From an uncultured Candidatus Saccharibacteria bacterium (GTDB taxonomy: Bacteria; Patescibacteriota; Saccharimonadia; CAILAD01; BJGX01): 64,000 bases of DNA. Position numbers and translations under genes: made by a program. Positions 19,636 through 64,000 of the stretch are shown here, piece by piece. Each line of letters starts with the position of its first letter. Position 1 is the stretch's first letter. The notes under the pieces were generated by a model. That model was not told where the DNA came from. It ran no database searches and worked only from the letters and a program-made list of their open reading frames with translations. The DNA is taken from positions 25,372 to 89,371 of the forward strand of contig CAYZYH010000001.1 in NCBI GenBank assembly GCA_964481235.1, written 5' to 3'.

Positions 19636-19734
19636 TTACTGGCAAACCTCACATTCGGCCAATTCTTCTGGGTTGATCGGGCAAACCATGGGTTTATCCC
19701 ACTCTTCGTCGTTGATCTTGTTCGTTTCTGGCAC
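19636..19734 (-). CDS. small Cys-containing peptide (32 aa), GTG start: (M)PETNKINDEEWDKPMVCPINPEELAECEVCQ
   Basis: RBS AAGGAGGG 8 nt upstream of GTG. Its own TTTACA-18-TATAAT promoter and a downstream terminator. Below the 60-aa track cutoff. Confidence 0.45.
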   Translation of the reverse strand: MPETNKINDEEWDKPMVCPINPEELAECEVCQ

Positions 19735-19870: not shown

Positions 19871-19901
19871 ACAAAATAAAAACCCCTACTGGTAGTAGAG
19901 G
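19871..19901 (-). terminator. intrinsic terminator after the wHTH/coiled-coil gene
   Basis: cccctact-ggt-agtagagg hairpin (one mismatch), followed on minus by TTTTTATTTTGT. Confidence 0.45.
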
Positions 19902-19912
19902 TTTGAGACTTA

Positions 19913-20572
19913 CTAGCTAACTTTCATTAAGCTAGCAGTAGCATTGCGAACAGCCTCACTTAGAGGAAGATATTCTAACTCCAACTCGGCATACAGAGCA
20001 CGCATTGCGGCAAGCGACTCCTCTTTGGCCTTGATCTCCTGATGCAAAGCCTGAAGCTTACTGACAGTTTCATCTAGCTTAGCCTGAAGTTCAGATGCCA
20101 AAGTGACAATGTTTGGGAAGCCATCATTGGTGTCTGCTGCTGCCTCGAGACCTACGGTCTCTGCAGTAGTGCCAACCTCTGGCTGATTAGAAGGTGTCTT
20201 TACTGGTTGCTTAGGAGCCCTAGTTTTTGGCTTGATGTTTTGAGTAGCATAAATTCGCTTGGTATGACGCTCGCGGGCATTTCGCAGGTCGCTCGCAGTA
20301 ATGCGCTTCTTGGTCATATCGATATGCCACAGGTATGTGCCATTAGGTTGCTTGTCGCCCTTCACCATCACCCGCATATAGCTGAGATGGCGCGAGATGG
20401 TTGCGCTATGGTGGTATAGACCCAGAGGCTCTAAAAGTTCCCTGAGGGTAAAAACTCGGTTCCCCGATTCATCACCAGGCATAGCCTGCAGAGCTTTCAG
20501 AACCTTATTGAGTATCTTCACCCATTCGTCTTCATTGCGAAGTCGCTTATTCTTTTCTGACAAAAGATCCAC
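19913..20572 (-). CDS. hypothetical protein: N-terminal winged-helix-like region, basic linker, C-terminal coiled coil (putative regulator)
   Basis: FTLRELLEPLGLYHHSATISRHLSYMRVMVKGDKQPNGTYLWHI resembles helix-turn-helix plus wing. C-terminus has heptad-like LQAKLDETVSKLQALHQEIKAKEESLAAM. GTG or TTG start. Confidence 0.5.
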   Translation of the reverse strand: MDLLSEKNKRLRNEDEWVKILNKVLKALQAMPGDESGNRVFTLRELLEPLGLYHHSATISRHLSYMRVMVKGDKQPNGTYLWHIDMTKKRITASDLRNARERHTKRIYATQNIKPKTRAPKQPVKTPSNQPEVGTTAETVGLEAAADTNDGFPNIVTLASELQAKLDETVSKLQALHQEIKAKEESLAAMRALYAELELEYLPLSEAVRNATASLMKVS

Positions 20573-20582
20573 CTTAGTTATG

Positions 20583-20597
20583 CGGGTAATTTACCCG
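20583..20597. promoter_or_regulatory. perfect 7-1-7 palindrome CGGGTAA-T-TTACCCG between promoter and start of the regulator-like gene (candidate operator)
   Basis: Checked by base pairing position by position. Lies at roughly +15 to +30 of the predicted transcript. Confidence 0.4.
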
Positions 20598-20614
20598 ACA
20601 AAATGGTCTTTGAG

Positions 20615-20643
20615 ATTGTAGCAATAAACTCTACATATGTCAA
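20615..20643 (-). promoter_or_regulatory. consensus promoter TTGACA-17-TACAAT for gene 19913..20572
   Basis: Minus-strand reading: cacaTTGACAtatgtagagtttattgcTACAATctc. Confidence 0.6.
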
Positions 20644-20653
20644 TGTGAGCTAT

Positions 20654-20683
20654 GTAAAAACCCCTAGAACATAATTCTAGGGG
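20654..20683 (-). terminator. intrinsic terminator after the GHKL ATPase gene
   Basis: 9-bp stem cccctagaa / ttctagggg with a 5-nt loop, followed on minus by TTTTTAC. Confidence 0.6.
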
Positions 20684-20696
20684 TTGGTTTATTAAT

Positions 20697-22364
20697 TTAC
20701 TGGGTTAGCAAGATAACAAAGGCAGCAAGCTCTGTGTCGAGCACTTCGGCTGCATGCTTTTGTGATTCTTCAGGTGAACAATGCAGGCTAAGTGCCTGAA
20801 TAGCCACCTGCTGTTGGTAGCGACGAATACAGAGGTCGGGGTTGCGACTGTAGTCGGCGCATTGTAGATACAAGGGGTGCTTGGTGTTGATCCACAAAAC
20901 ACCTACTCGCAAATCTAGTTGCCAGGGTCCACTGAGGTGTTGAGTTTCGCCAAGGCGCAAGCCAAACGACTTCGCCTTAACGGTTTTACGCTCCTTACCA
21001 GATGGGTCCGGAACCTTGGTTTCGCCACCATTGGTGGTTCTACCATTTCCACCGCCACTGTTGCCGCCGCCTCCACCAGTTGGTGGTGCATCGCCCCCAG
21101 TGCCGCTGTTTCCGCCACCAGAACCACCTTCTCCGGTCTTCTTTGGAGCAGATGTTTTGCTGGCAGGCACATCAGTTTCTTCGTCGTCGCCGGTAGGGTC
21201 GGGGCCTTGTGCTCCAGTACCCGGTAGATCGGCCGGAAATCGACCAACAAGATCGGCATACATTCTCATAGATGGGTCTTCAAAAAGCTTATTGAGAGCA
21301 TCCAGAGCTTTTTCGGCATTTTTCTCAAATCGTTCTGAGTCTTCCCGGCTAAGAGCCTCTTGGTAGTATTCCCTACCAATATGCTCATACCAATTCTCTA
21401 GTGCCATACAGAACTCTACAAAGCCATCGTTGTCTTCATAGCTTACTCTATCAGGACTCAGTGTAAGAGTGTTACTGAGCAACTCTCCTTCAAAAATTCC
21501 CGAACAAAGTGCCTGAACAATCTCGTCGTCCAGTAGCTCTGTGAGGCTCCTTTGGTTTTTTATAAGAGTCTCAAATGGTACACGATACGGTGTAGCCAGG
21601 GTACCTGTAGAAACGCTACCGCTATACTTGCCTTCAATTCGAAGGGCTAAGAACAGCTTGATCTCAACCAACTTATCACGCCTAGGCTCAAACAAGAACA
21701 GATCAAGTTTGGTACCACTATAAGGCTCAGCCACCGTCGTAAAGGTGTATTCTGGGCCCTTCAATGGTTGTACGGTAAAGCGCAACACCGTGTCGTTTCG
21801 AAGCATCTTGGTGCGAAAGTTGGTAACAGCTGTAGCAGCCAACTTATTCACATCAAACTCCGACGTTTTACGGTCTTTGGTAACACCATGCATTACCATG
21901 CGCGTACGCCAATTGGGGTTTACGGGGTGCTTTTGGCGTTTTTGTTGACTCTTGGAGAAAACAACCTCTACTTCTGAATCAGGAATATCAACTTCGTCAG
22001 CCGATTTCTCAATTTCATCGGTAACAAAGGTCCACTCCAGACCATTAGATGTAAATGTGAAGTAATCACACTTACCCAAGGGAGCTACCAGGCCACGGCC
22101 AAATTGACCATAGGCATCTAATTGCTCGCCCTTAATGCTACGGCCAACTGTCTGTAGAGCAGTGTTAAACTTCTCTTTGGTAACACCTACGCCGTCGTCA
22201 TAAACGCGAATTTCGCGCTTTTTGCGATTGATATCTACCCAAACATTTTGAGCATCGGCATCCATAGCGTTCTGGATAGCCTCTAAGATAACCGCAAAGA
22301 CATATGGGTAAGTTTCTGCGGCGGCCATGATGGCCGCTCCTACGTGGGGTTTGAGTTTGGCCAT
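20697..22364 (-). CDS. GHKL-superfamily (Bergerat-fold, HSP90/MORC-type) ATPase with Gly-rich low-complexity linker and uncharacterised C-terminal domain
   Basis: N-box ILEAIQNAMDA, G1 box RVYDDGVGV and G2 box GQFGRG within the first 100 aa. About 60-aa GGSGGGNSGTGG... linker. RBS GAGAGGA. One-nt TGATG overlap with the upstream gene. Confidence 0.6.
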   Translation of the reverse strand: MAKLKPHVGAAIMAAAETYPYVFAVILEAIQNAMDADAQNVWVDINRKKREIRVYDDGVGVTKEKFNTALQTVGRSIKGEQLDAYGQFGRGLVAPLGKCDYFTFTSNGLEWTFVTDEIEKSADEVDIPDSEVEVVFSKSQQKRQKHPVNPNWRTRMVMHGVTKDRKTSEFDVNKLAATAVTNFRTKMLRNDTVLRFTVQPLKGPEYTFTTVAEPYSGTKLDLFLFEPRRDKLVEIKLFLALRIEGKYSGSVSTGTLATPYRVPFETLIKNQRSLTELLDDEIVQALCSGIFEGELLSNTLTLSPDRVSYEDNDGFVEFCMALENWYEHIGREYYQEALSREDSERFEKNAEKALDALNKLFEDPSMRMYADLVGRFPADLPGTGAQGPDPTGDDEETDVPASKTSAPKKTGEGGSGGGNSGTGGDAPPTGGGGGNSGGGNGRTTNGGETKVPDPSGKERKTVKAKSFGLRLGETQHLSGPWQLDLRVGVLWINTKHPLYLQCADYSRNPDLCIRRYQQQVAIQALSLHCSPEESQKHAAEVLDTELAAFVILLTQ

Positions 22365-23149
22365 CAGCGTACAATCCTCTCTTCGCTCTTGTGGGCACGA
22401 ATCTTGCGACGACTTTGTTCGTTACTAAGAGAATCAAACAAGCTACTAAGCTCGCTGATTCCGTCGTAACCTACGCGTTTTCTTAAGCCTCTACGCTGCT
22501 CCTCGCTCACAGCGTCGCTATTGAAATAACGAGCCAGTGGTAGAAGAGCCTGTAACGAGGCAACAAAGATATTCTCAACTTCTACTACAGATAGAGTGGT
22601 CTCATCTGGCGTAGACGTGAGAATAACAGATTGGTTATTAGCCTCAACTGGCTTAGCTCTGTAGAGCACCGGACTTTGCTTTACATTATCCCAAAAATCG
22701 GCAATGTAAAACTGAGTTGTCGAAACAACGATCTCAGCATATACTTTAGCCAACTCGTCCTTATCTTTGGTGCGTCCAGTTCTTTGCAGAATATACCTCA
22801 GATACTGCTTGGTTCTAGCGTAAGCCAGAGCCTCACTAGCATCTGTGGCACTACACACTCCAAGGCCAACTGCATAGGCAATTGTCCTATCTTCTTTCGC
22901 AAGATCTTCCCATTCCGTACACTTATAGCCAAATAGCTCTAGCACTACTCGAACACGCAAAAGAATCTCACCTTGAGTGTTAAAGCCATTGCGAATCCAC
23001 ACTCTAAGTGTAGAGTGGTAACTAACATTTATGAGTTGAGCAAACAGCTTTTGTTCAGGTGGCTTATCGAATCTACGTATAAATGCCTCAAAGCACTCTT
23101 TTGTAGTTCCTCTAAATACCACGGCGCCATCTAGCTCTCTAGTGGACAC
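22364..23149 (-). CDS. hypothetical protein (261 aa), first gene of a two-gene operon with the GHKL ATPase
   Basis: GTG start with AAGGTGA RBS. No recognisable motif. Translationally coupled to the downstream gene. Confidence 0.45.
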   Translation of the reverse strand: MSTRELDGAVVFRGTTKECFEAFIRRFDKPPEQKLFAQLINVSYHSTLRVWIRNGFNTQGEILLRVRVVLELFGYKCTEWEDLAKEDRTIAYAVGLGVCSATDASEALAYARTKQYLRYILQRTGRTKDKDELAKVYAEIVVSTTQFYIADFWDNVKQSPVLYRAKPVEANNQSVILTSTPDETTLSVVEVENIFVASLQALLPLARYFNSDAVSEEQRRGLRKRVGYDGISELSSLFDSLSNEQSRRKIRAHKSEERIVR

Positions 23150-23211
23150 TTTTTCACCTTTCGGTTTTTCAAAGTACTGTATTCATCACCCAAGTTGGGC
23201 GAACTGACGTA

Positions 23212-23240
23212 ATATTACTACAATTTAGTACTATAGTCAA
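23212..23240 (-). promoter_or_regulatory. sigma70-like promoter TTGACT-17-TAATAT for the 261-aa / GHKL operon
   Basis: Minus-strand reading: ccTTGACTatagtactaaattgtagTAATATtac. Confidence 0.55.
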
Positions 23241-62936: not shown

Positions 62937-64000
62937 CTAGTCTTCGTCGGTTGACGGTGCTTCATCGCTCGGCTCAGCCGAGGCTTCTGCACTATCTACT
63001 GCAACATCAGAGGCAACTTCGGGCGAACCCAAGCCGTTGCCGTTAACCATCTTATCTACACCTAGGGTCATGAGGGTATTTAGAAGGCCAGAGCCCACCG
63101 AGTCACCACCAACCTGGATTTGCGGGGTGAGTACCACTCCGCCCTTACCGATCTGCTCAAGAGCAGCAACCAAACCAGTCTGCTGCCGGCCAATGGCCTG
63201 CTGCTGGGCATCGAAGCCCTTGGCAACAGCAAGACCCTTGGCCTCGGTGGCCGTGGCTTCTGCCAGACCAGTGGCCTGAATAGCAGCAGCCTCAGCTTCA
63301 CCTGTCAGCTTGGTCACATCGGCAGCTGCCTGACCCTTGGCACGCGCAACTGCAGCATCACCTTCAGCCTGGGCAACCGCGGCTTCTGCCTCGGCACCCT
63401 TGACCTCGATACTAACCTTAGCACGGGCCAGATCGGCCTGAGCATCGGCCACACCGCGCTGGTTCTCTAGGGCAATACGAGCCTGTTCAGCAATCTGCTG
63501 GCTCTCGTACGTCGCCTTCTGCTGGGCCGCAATCTCTCGCGTCGTCAGCACCTCGACCAACTCAGCCGGGAAGATGACGTCCTGAATGTACACACCCCGG
63601 ACCTCTACCTGGTATCGTGTGAGATAGGTAGTGACGTACGATTCGGCCTGAGCCTGAACTTCGTCACGCTTCTGAATGAACTCGGCGGCGCCGAGCGACT
63701 GCAGCTTGTTACGGAAGTAGTTGCCCACCGCCGACTGCAGAACCTCATTAACCAGGTTCTGCATGGTTCCCACCATGCTGATGACCTTCGGCGCCCGGGT
63801 GTCGGGCACGTGAATCTGCACCTGTAGGTCAATGCTAAAGTCAAACGCTTCCTTGCTCTTGGCGTCGATCGACGACAGTCGGCCGTCGAGATCGTGCGCA
63901 TCACTGGTCGCGTTGGCCCAGTTGAGCGTCAAAATAGACGTTGGCACAATCTCGGCCTCGTAGATGCGCGGGTTTAGGGTGTACTTGCCGGTACGCAGAG
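62937..64000 (-). CDS. SPFH/Band-7 flotillin-like protein (partial; N-terminus beyond the window end), GC-rich
   Basis: Frame stays open upstream of the track start (GTG 63947) to position 64000. Flotillin-type Ala/Glu repeats (AEAEAAVAQAEGDAAVARAKGQAAAD...). Acidic Ser/Asp tail. Confidence 0.6.
   Translation of the reverse strand, partial: LRTGKYTLNPRIYEAEIVPTSILTLNWANATSDAHDLDGRLSSIDAKSKEAFDFSIDLQVQIHVPDTRAPKVISMVGTMQNLVNEVLQSAVGNYFRNKLQSLGAAEFIQKRDEVQAQAESYVTTYLTRYQVEVRGVYIQDVIFPAELVEVLTTREIAAQQKATYESQQIAEQARIALENQRGVADAQADLARAKVSIEVKGAEAEAAVAQAEGDAAVARAKGQAAADVTKLTGEAEAAAIQATGLAEATATEAKGLAVAKGFDAQQQAIGRQQTGLVAALEQIGKGGVVLTPQIQVGGDSVGSGLLNTLMTLGVDKMVNGNGLGSPEVASDVAVDSAEASAEPSDEAPSTDED

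Follow-up and report, generated by a model that had tools for sequence, protein, structure and literature searches.

What kind of system is encoded by three minus-strand genes that lie together in a 64,000-nucleotide stretch of DNA from an uncultured Candidatus Saccharibacteria bacterium (contig CAYZYH010000001.1; the whole stretch is hereafter called the window)? The genes, denoted A (22364..23149, 261 aa), B (20697..22364, 555 aa) and C (19913..20572, 219 aa), had been singled out in an original prediction as a three-gene accessory module, either defence-like or signalling, and our analysis confirmed all three open reading frames (ORFs) as well as the TGATG sequence in which the A stop codon and the B start overlap. 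Much of bacterial diversity belongs to the ultra-small Patescibacteria (CPR), and the genes specific to their lineages mostly lack an assigned function. Here we found that A and B constitute an undescribed paraMORC-like ATPase family with an obligate partner predicted to be a helix-turn-helix (HTH) protein, and that the known members of this family are restricted to Patescibacteria. The family as defined here comprises at least 348 sequence clusters. The B protein folds like MORC, SMCHD1 and MutL, yet is found without their usual partners (MutS, helicases and nucleases), and the compact cassette, which carries its own expression signals, makes the system directly testable.

The A-B gene pair and its distribution

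Word-indexed homologue searches returned only six relatives of B and three of A, and the family thereby looked tiny. An exhaustive profile search with B over 1.84 billion representatives, in contrast, gave 1,891 matches in total, 348 of them at E<1e-30, and nearly all of these strong relatives are 540-600 aa long and match B from end to end. Loci encoding B were gathered by exact-protein look-up (13 loci), from GTDB genomes (36 loci) and from IMG/VR (3 loci), and the upstream genes were compared with a hidden Markov model (HMM) of A. In ~45 loci, an A homologue was detected as the next gene upstream of B, in the same orientation and in most cases adjoining or overlapping it, with E-values of 1e-12 to 1e-31 in the distant loci. 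The pairing, for which adjacency across genomes had been the proposed check, holds in essentially every locus that has upstream sequence. The apparent exceptions are one contig end, one truncated B and one locus (L044) in which an A-like protein scored just below the threshold. The reverse order, B followed by A, was seen in a single locus (L051:5869-8419, on the 32-kb IMG/VR contig IMGVR_UViG_3300037264_009892), where the linkage of A and B survives the rearrangement.

Every available source name of a family member is Patescibacteria or Parcubacteria, and among the GTDB loci are representatives of Saccharibacteria, Parcubacteria/Paceibacteria lineages, Magasanikbacteria and further groups. 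GTDB was scanned with two peptide patterns that recover ~36% of the known family members; the 36 loci found in this way therefore correspond, as a rough estimate, to ~100 carrier species among the 185,579 GTDB species scanned. Three loci titled uncultured Gammaproteobacteria bacterium (L020, L026 and L039) have a gene for a P-type ATPase followed by A and then B. The same order is found in the Parcubacteria-titled loci L034 and L048, and the B proteins of these loci cluster together. Given this synteny with Parcubacteria-titled metagenome-assembled genomes (MAGs), the Gammaproteobacteria labels are probably wrong. The P-type ATPase gene was also considered as a partner of the module and was set aside, as it is confined to this one subclade. 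A neighbor-joining tree of B was star-like, and vertical and horizontal descent are not separable in it given the unreliable MAG labels. We also considered, and rejected, a phage origin of the family. A tblastn search against 50,697 phage records gave no match, only three IMG/VR contigs matched, and BFVD returned only generic topoisomerase, RIIA and Hsp90 folds.

Predicted architecture of B, A and the third gene

Gene B had been described as an HSP90/MORC-type GHKL ATPase with N, G1 and G2 boxes, and this assignment stands. The motifs ILEAIQNAMDA, YDDGVGV and GQFGRG are present, and the sole Pfam match of the protein is HATPase_c_3 (residues 24-109, E=2e-12, above the cut-off), which by sequence places B in the GHKL (Bergerat-fold) ATPase superfamily. 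No Pfam match at E<=1 was obtained beyond residue ~109, and the NCBIfam, PADLOC and PHROGs matches were confined to the N-terminal core, far under the family cut-offs. An earlier AlphaFold2 (AF2) model of B built from 7 sequences had a predicted local distance difference test score (pLDDT) of 57, and its Foldseek matches, the best being the sacsin SR1 domain and GRP94, were limited to the GHKL core. The model built from a 150-sequence alignment reached a pLDDT of 88.3 and a predicted template modeling score (pTM) of 0.81, with disorder only at residues 383-445. Its fold matches (the two values of each match are in brackets) were to MORC3 (19.0; 286), the SMCHD1 ATPase module (18.9; 303), MORC2 (18.9; 310), MutL (17.4; 263), TRAP1 (16.4; 305), ParE (15.3; 264) and Topo VI-B (15.0; 295). 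These matches indicate that residues 1 to ~310 comprise a GHKL domain followed by an S5-fold transducer, the arrangement that defines the class of MutL, MORC, the type II topoisomerase ATPases and Hsp90, to which B belongs. We therefore predict that B is a GHKL plus S5-transducer ATPase of the MORC/SMCHD1/MutL structural class with its catalytic residues intact.

Five parts can be distinguished along the protein, all encoded on the minus strand. Residues 1-150 (21915..22364) form the GHKL ATP-binding domain, with E28 and N32 in the N box, D56-G58-G60 in G1 and G86/G89/G91 in G2. The S5-fold transducer (residues 151-310; 21435..21914) includes the invariant G293 (in SGxFEGE) and R306, and is followed at residues 311-380 (21225..21434) by a long helix (313-360) and a short helix, delimited by the AF2 secondary structure and the alignments and bearing the invariant W325 and the conserved SERF/ERYQ. 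Among 150 B homologues, the invariant residues are E28, N32, G58, G91, G293, R306 and W325. In the GHKL plus S5 class, the S5 domain supplies a conserved basic residue (PMC2292703), and R306 is a candidate for this basic gamma-phosphate sensor. Residues 383-445 (21030..21218) are a disordered Gly/Ser/Pro/Asn-rich linker with pLDDT below 50, whose coding sequence has a GC peak of 0.528 and whose length and composition vary among homologues. The C-terminal alpha/beta domain (residues 446-555; 20700..21029) is compact, modeled with pLDDT around 90 or higher, and consists of five strands and three helices with conserved N493, H496 and C502. It is probably a dimerisation or partner-binding domain. 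Its fold matches are zincin-like and not of the PD-(D/E)xK type, and metallopeptidase activity was considered for it and rejected. HExxH is missing; the corresponding helix reads QQQVAIQ in the window copy and QExxAxQ across the family, and B is accordingly not expected to be a peptidase.

Gene A had been listed as a protein of unknown type. The copy in the window indeed has no direct Pfam match, but the family is not featureless, since a few of 37 aligned A homologues match HTH_23, HTH_17, HTH_3 or Phage_CI_repr (best E 1e-6) and the A family profile matches the P22 C2 repressor at E=2e-3. On the basis of these individual and profile matches, A is predicted to be a Cro/C1 (XRE)-type HTH protein with a family-specific C-terminal domain. 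Its architecture consists of the N-terminal HTH, a second helical region, a variable spacer and the conserved C-terminal domain, which has the motif LPLA..SD.FS.E.R..LR...G.D...LS..L..L(C/S)SE..R and contains R219, R223 and R247, all invariant in the alignment.

The third gene is less constant. The locus had been taken as a three-gene unit, and while the A-B core of that unit held up, C is found only in the Saccharibacteria clade of the window (9 non-redundant loci, in which B identity falls to 33%). The alignment of C resolves three parts: ~95 N-terminal residues that form a conserved globular domain, a basic, disordered linker of low complexity and a leucine-zipper-type coiled coil. C had been proposed to be a winged helix-turn-helix (wHTH)/coiled-coil regulator. 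The coiled coil is borne out, being the only part with family or PDB matches (ZapB, HALZ and MafG), whereas the N-terminal domain gave no HTH family or PDB match and, judged by eye, has a helix-turn-helix-hairpin pattern that looks wHTH-like. We noted in addition that the GTG start of C at 20572 has no spacing to the Shine-Dalgarno sequence AAGGTGG, while an in-frame TTG three codons downstream, at 20563, has this ribosome-binding site (RBS) at 5-nt spacing. The better spacing makes the TTG the more likely start, which would give a protein of 216 aa.

According to the original prediction, C would regulate the module through a CGGGTAA-N-TTACCCG palindrome in its own leader. In such a model C would act there as a dimer, and we now regard this as quite improbable. 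The palindrome (CGGGTAA-A-TTACCCG, 20583..20597) does sit between the C promoter and the RBS, the coiled coil would suit dimerisation, and C is missing together with A and B from a related genome that lacks the cassette (see below). Perfect palindromes with 7-nt arms are, however, not unusual in the window, where they occur about once per 2 kb (31, against 19.7±4.4 in shuffles). In L012, the closest relative, the counterpart is CGGGTGAATTGCCCG, with two A-to-G changes by which the DNA symmetry is lost and RNA pairing is kept as G.U; the other, more distant members of the clade carry there an unrelated sequence able to form a hairpin, or no such sequence. A DNA-binding fold of C, moreover, is suggested by the visual wHTH-like pattern, and most A-B loci have no C at all. 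The palindrome is more likely a leader RNA stem-loop, or a chance occurrence, than an operator for C.

Other genes appear to take the place of C elsewhere. In 11 distant A-B loci (L018, L019, L024, L027, L028, L029, L033, L035, L036, L037 and L041), a small gene that we call U, of 80-118 aa, adjoins A upstream (for example L029:4882-5238, plus strand). The U protein has the motif ITFSL.DW.G...P.KGQVV.L..VQ.FAKGWRA..ARP, and no Pfam, NCBIfam or PDB relatives of it were detected. U probably serves the system as a third component specific to certain lineages. Downstream of B at L030:7763-8266 and L033:4437-5087 lies the gene for a different basic protein, in which a wHTH-like segment, KRALEKLAKQGVVAQGKRRRWLVLLNPDG, precedes a K/R-rich tract. 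An hhalign comparison with C gave no homology, and this protein may be a functional analogue of C. Collectively, these comparisons of gene content and sequence point to A-B as the conserved core and to a third gene that is interchangeable between C, U and another basic wHTH-like protein.

Expression signals and genomic setting of the cassette

The three genes form an accessory cassette that is equipped with expression signals of its own. From the TGATG overlap, A and B are predicted to form a translationally coupled two-gene operon. The two promoters and two terminators named earlier were recovered by a consensus scan: the A-B promoter TTGACT-17-TAATAT at 23212..23240 (minus strand, 9/12 match), the C promoter TTGACA-17-TACAAT with an extended -10 TG at 20615..20643 (minus strand, 11/12 match), an intrinsic terminator after B at 20659..20685 (an 11-bp stem followed by a T-run) and a terminator after C at 19880..19904 (minus strand). 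Terminator-like sites are enriched in the region (11, compared with 3.2±1.7 in shuffles), and promoter-like sites show no excess (7, compared with 5.3±2.8). A stronger argument than the scan that these signals are real is their recurrence in related loci. The hairpin and T-run after B and the TTGACA...TAnnAT upstream of C are each retained in 9/9 of these loci, and TTGAC(T/A)-17-TAnnAT before A is kept in five long loci and is in the same place in L012, L001, L004 and L009. The ratio of nonsynonymous to synonymous substitution rates (dN/dS) relative to L012 is 0.16 in A, 0.09 in C and 0.07 in B. Such low values show purifying selection on all three genes, strong especially on B, and indicate that all three are expressed, selected genes.

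A search for operators upstream of A gave a weak repeat with an AGTACT core and nothing else. The sequence AGTACT(G/A)TA(T/G)TCA is present in two copies 54 bp apart, at 23173-23185 and 23227-23239. The AGTACT core reads as a palindrome in its own right, and the copies differ in location: one shares bases with the -35 element of the A promoter, the other is in the A leader. The repeats are only partly conserved in L012 and could be putative operator sites for A. An Rfam search of the window gave no matches.

The proposal that the module is self-contained and accessory is supported by a metagenome contig of a related Saccharibacterium (Ga0214921_10016738, L055). Within the clade of the window, the cassette is always located between the gene for a LOG protein and a small peptide gene. 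At L055:4723-5795, the peptide gene lies ~270 bp from LOG, and A, B and C are all missing, so that this is the empty site of the cassette. LOG, orf132 and a transglycosylase are present in L055 at identities of 61%, 60% and 59%. The trio is thus a clean presence/absence polymorphism (indel). Clade-wide, identities are 30-32% for A, 33-43% for C and 44-56% for B, compared with 61-73% for LOG, orf132 and the transglycosylase. Relative to the 63 genes of the window, B and C have an elevated GC content at third codon positions (GC3), with z=+1.6 and z=+2.1, respectively.

The setting itself is not as had been assumed. The trio had been said to have no housekeeping context, but its neighbours in the window, pyrF, a pyrE-like phosphoribosyltransferase gene and the gene for the LOG/SLOG protein, are housekeeping genes. 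The same is true of the flanks of 28 distant loci, in which the 121 proteins are housekeeping proteins such as P-type ATPases, ArgRS, TsaD, SMC, GyrA, MreB and AlaRS.

Two further genes of the window deserve mention. The small gene just downstream of C (19636..19734, minus strand) encodes a 32-aa acidic peptide, MPETNKINDEEWDKPMVCPINPEELAECEVCQ, and has a strong RBS, a promoter at 19828-19799 and a terminator at 19580-19554. Through most of the Saccharibacteria clade the identity of the peptide is 64-69%, dropping to 47% in L002; it has the motif C-P-x2-P-x2-L-x-E-C-x2-C-Q-stop and has no Pfam match. One possibility is a small metal-binding or redox protein containing Cys. As a candidate part of the module it was rejected; its presence beside LOG in L055, which is without the trio, shows it to be independent of the cassette. 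At 62937..63947 (minus strand), an SPFH/Band-7 gene has a GC content of 0.587 and a GC3 of 0.634 (z=+4.6), compared with a GC content of 0.41 for the window, and may be a recent horizontal acquisition.

Possible roles and relation to known systems

How might such a pair work? The fold and architecture suggest a model in which B would be a constitutive dimer held by its C-terminal domain. ATP binding would close the two N-terminal GHKL modules, a step that E28, N32, D56 and R306 would serve, and B would act as an ATP-gated clamp on DNA like MutL, MORC and SMCHD1. A would supply DNA recognition, autoregulation of the operon or both, and probably contacts B through its conserved C-terminal domain. 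In the clade of the window, C would add a second dimeric DNA-binding component, and U and the other third-gene variants would add lineage-specific DNA-binding or adaptor functions. As far as its architecture can tell, the A-B pair most likely acts on DNA. We favor, with a confidence that falls somewhat short of even, a conflict-type DNA clamp, that is, a nuclease-free function in genome conflict, over a core housekeeping activity; the candidate roles are the silencing or exclusion of invading DNA, or an addiction-like module. Among the roles considered, conflict appears the most likely given the sparse and patchy distribution, the syntenic indel, the fast evolution of A and C and the interchangeable third gene. 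Of the defence-like or signalling module proposed at the outset, the accessory nature was thus upheld, while the PADLOC check gave no system match and neither a defence-island nor a mobile-element context was seen.

Several observations weigh against a conflict role for the clamp. In PADLOC-DB v2, A and C have no matches, and B matches only weakly, through its N-terminal GHKL region (residues 14-99), to TmtA and REase_II. No effector domain with a nuclease, TIR or protease motif was detected in A, B or C. The flanks of the 28 distant loci contain no integrases or transposases and no recurrent PADLOC defence family, and the stable synteny in the clade of the window, combined with the low dN/dS, would be just as compatible with an ordinary cellular function. 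The number of carrier species is a rough estimate, and the third-party annotation (TPA) MAGs have unreliable taxon labels. The interaction of A with B, the dimerisation of B, DNA binding and ATPase activity are themselves inferred from fold and architecture. The evidence on the biological role is therefore split between conflict or addiction on one side and a cellular role, with housekeeping flanks, no effector and stable synteny, on the other.

The latter possibility, a lineage-specific cellular system for DNA transactions or regulation, is doubtful by comparison and is still the rival we take most seriously. B would be a compaction or looping ATPase resembling MORC and SMCHD1, or a transcription-state switch, that A (with C in the clade of the window) targets to chromosomal sites, serving nucleoid organisation or lifestyle-dependent regulation. 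In its favour, the neighbours of the pair are housekeeping genes whatever the lineage, and no defence or mobile-element genes are among them; the synteny of the pair has been stable while LOG diverged to 65-71% identity in the clade; purifying selection is strong, on B especially; no effector domain is present; and the closest folds, MORC and SMCHD1, are ATPases of chromatin compaction and silencing. This explanation has difficulty, however, with a carrier number of only ~100 inferred GTDB species, with the absence of the cassette from the same site in a related Saccharibacterium, with A and C evolving much faster than the flanking genes and with a third gene that varies by lineage. The patchy distribution, the scatter of loci among housekeeping genes and the variable presence at a syntenic site would agree with a toxin-antitoxin (TA) or abortive-infection-like module, as would the type II layout (the HTH gene first, the TGATG overlap, and a promoter and terminator of its own) and the fast evolution of A, which exceeds that of the other genes. 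In such a module A would be an XRE-type antitoxin and autorepressor, and freed B would be harmful, for example by clamping or compacting the DNA of its own cell or by depleting ATP. We know of no GHKL plus S5 toxin, however; B is large (555 aa) and well conserved, A far exceeds the usual size of antitoxins, B precedes A in one locus, and no PADLOC or TA-family match was found, making this version decidedly unlikely.

It is more unlikely still, we believe, that B is a chaperone of the Hsp90/sacsin type that remodels clients, with A merely a repressor or activator of the operon that does not act with B on DNA. Operons that start with an XRE-HTH gene are often simply autoregulated, the low-confidence first model of B had sacsin SR1 and GRP94 as its best matches, and there is a weak NCBIfam match to the sacsin N-terminus. 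Yet membership of B in HtpG/Hsp90 was rejected, as the NCBIfam models, which have cut-offs of 371 and 455 bits, gave 16.4 and 25 bits, respectively, with matches to the GHKL core only, and B has no sequence similarity to the Hsp90 middle or C-terminal domains. The strict A-B linkage and the phylum-wide conservation of the non-HTH domain of A also suggest more than transcriptional control.

Returning to the clamp on DNA, a bolder version would have A-B correspond in bacteria to the silencing carried out by MORC and SMCHD1 in eukaryotes. Sequence-specific HTH adaptors (A and, in some lineages, C or U as well) would load an ATP-gated clamp that, nuclease-free and confined to Patescibacteria, compacts or transcriptionally silences invading elements or chosen chromosomal regions. 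We consider this unlikely as a whole. If true, it would add a mechanistically new class to the means by which prokaryotes defend their genomes or control chromatin, and would do so in bacteria whose genomes are tiny and in which few defence systems are known. An HTH-guided DNA clamp would likewise offer a simple bacterial model for MORC-type DNA compaction and silencing, and possibly a nuclease-free way of handling foreign DNA.

Comparison with described systems places the family more precisely. No model specific for A, B, C or U was found in Pfam, NCBIfam, PHROGs or PADLOC, and a literature search for GHKL, MORC or HATPase_c_3 together with Patescibacteria returned no relevant description. 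The ImmR/ImmA, CapH/CapP and type II TA loci are pairs of adjacent genes, one for an XRE-HTH protein and the other for an enzyme or second protein. As is predicted for A-B, the HTH gene is first and is coupled to the second gene, and the loci are compact with their own promoter and terminator. The partner in the cassette is, however, a 555-aa GHKL ATPase without HExxH, and the likeness rests on weak fold scores. CapK, an HTH-STAS-GHKL anti-sigma-type kinase, and CapS, a STAS-wHTH protein, are encoded upstream of an immune operon (PMC13373217) and resemble the cassette as a small co-encoded pair of GHKL-superfamily and HTH proteins. Membership in this group was rejected: Pfam detects no STAS domain in A, B or C, B is of the S5-transducer class, and the downstream genes are housekeeping genes. 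VcSduA, a GHKL-fused Shedu nuclease assigned to paraMORC3, is accessory, with a prevalence of ~1.2% of genomes (PMC12137116). Like B, it is one protein chain of comparable length, in which a GHKL ATPase and a clamp-like middle domain precede a C-terminal domain. B does not qualify as a Shedu type I-D/paraMORC3 protein, as the DUF4263 PD-(D/E)xK nuclease domain is absent, and VcSduA acts alone, whereas B is always accompanied by A.

B proved to be neither a full-length MutL nor a full-length HtpG, two identities under which the proposal of a distinct A-B module would have lost its footing, and A and B co-occur as described. MutL has the same three-part layout, in which a GHKL plus S5 module of ~330-380 aa is joined through a long disordered linker to a small C-terminal domain, and its K307 is at a linear position that presumably matches the invariant R306 of B. 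The best PDB sequence-profile matches of B are also to MutL (E=6e-8), over profile positions 32-84 only; the sequence likeness is confined to ~50 residues of the GHKL core. The best NCBIfam MutL model scores 32.8 bits against a cut-off of 180 (MutL cut-offs are 180-937) and covers residues 12-71 only, and B has neither a MutL_C domain nor an endonuclease motif. MutS was not found among the flanking genes examined, and the partner of B is instead an HTH protein. The likeness of B to MutL is architectural and not orthology.

The closest relation is to the MORC and paraMORC proteins of prokaryotes and to eukaryotic MORC2, MORC3 and SMCHD1, which like B have a GHKL domain with intact ATP motifs followed by an S5 transducer that supplies a conserved basic residue. 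Like the members of this class, B would be expected to act on DNA through ATP-driven dimerisation. The MORC family sensu stricto is marked by a GhXhhpXXRhl motif in the S5 domain, and paraMORC1-5 by neighbourhood linkage to superfamily II (SFII) helicases, methylases or nucleases, or by a fused nuclease or TIR domain (Iyer, Abhiman & Aravind 2008, PMC2292703). A regular-expression search did not find the GhXhhpXXRhl motif in B, which also has no MORC-specific Pfam domain, and among 150 family members there was one match, in the GHKL region and outside the S5 domain; B was therefore not assigned to MORC sensu stricto. Nor was it assigned to paraMORC1-5, as it is without linkage to SFII helicases, methylases or nucleases and has no nuclease or TIR domain of its own. 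What sets B apart from MORC and paraMORC is a unique C-terminal domain, an obligatory HTH partner and a known membership that lies entirely within the Patescibacteria.

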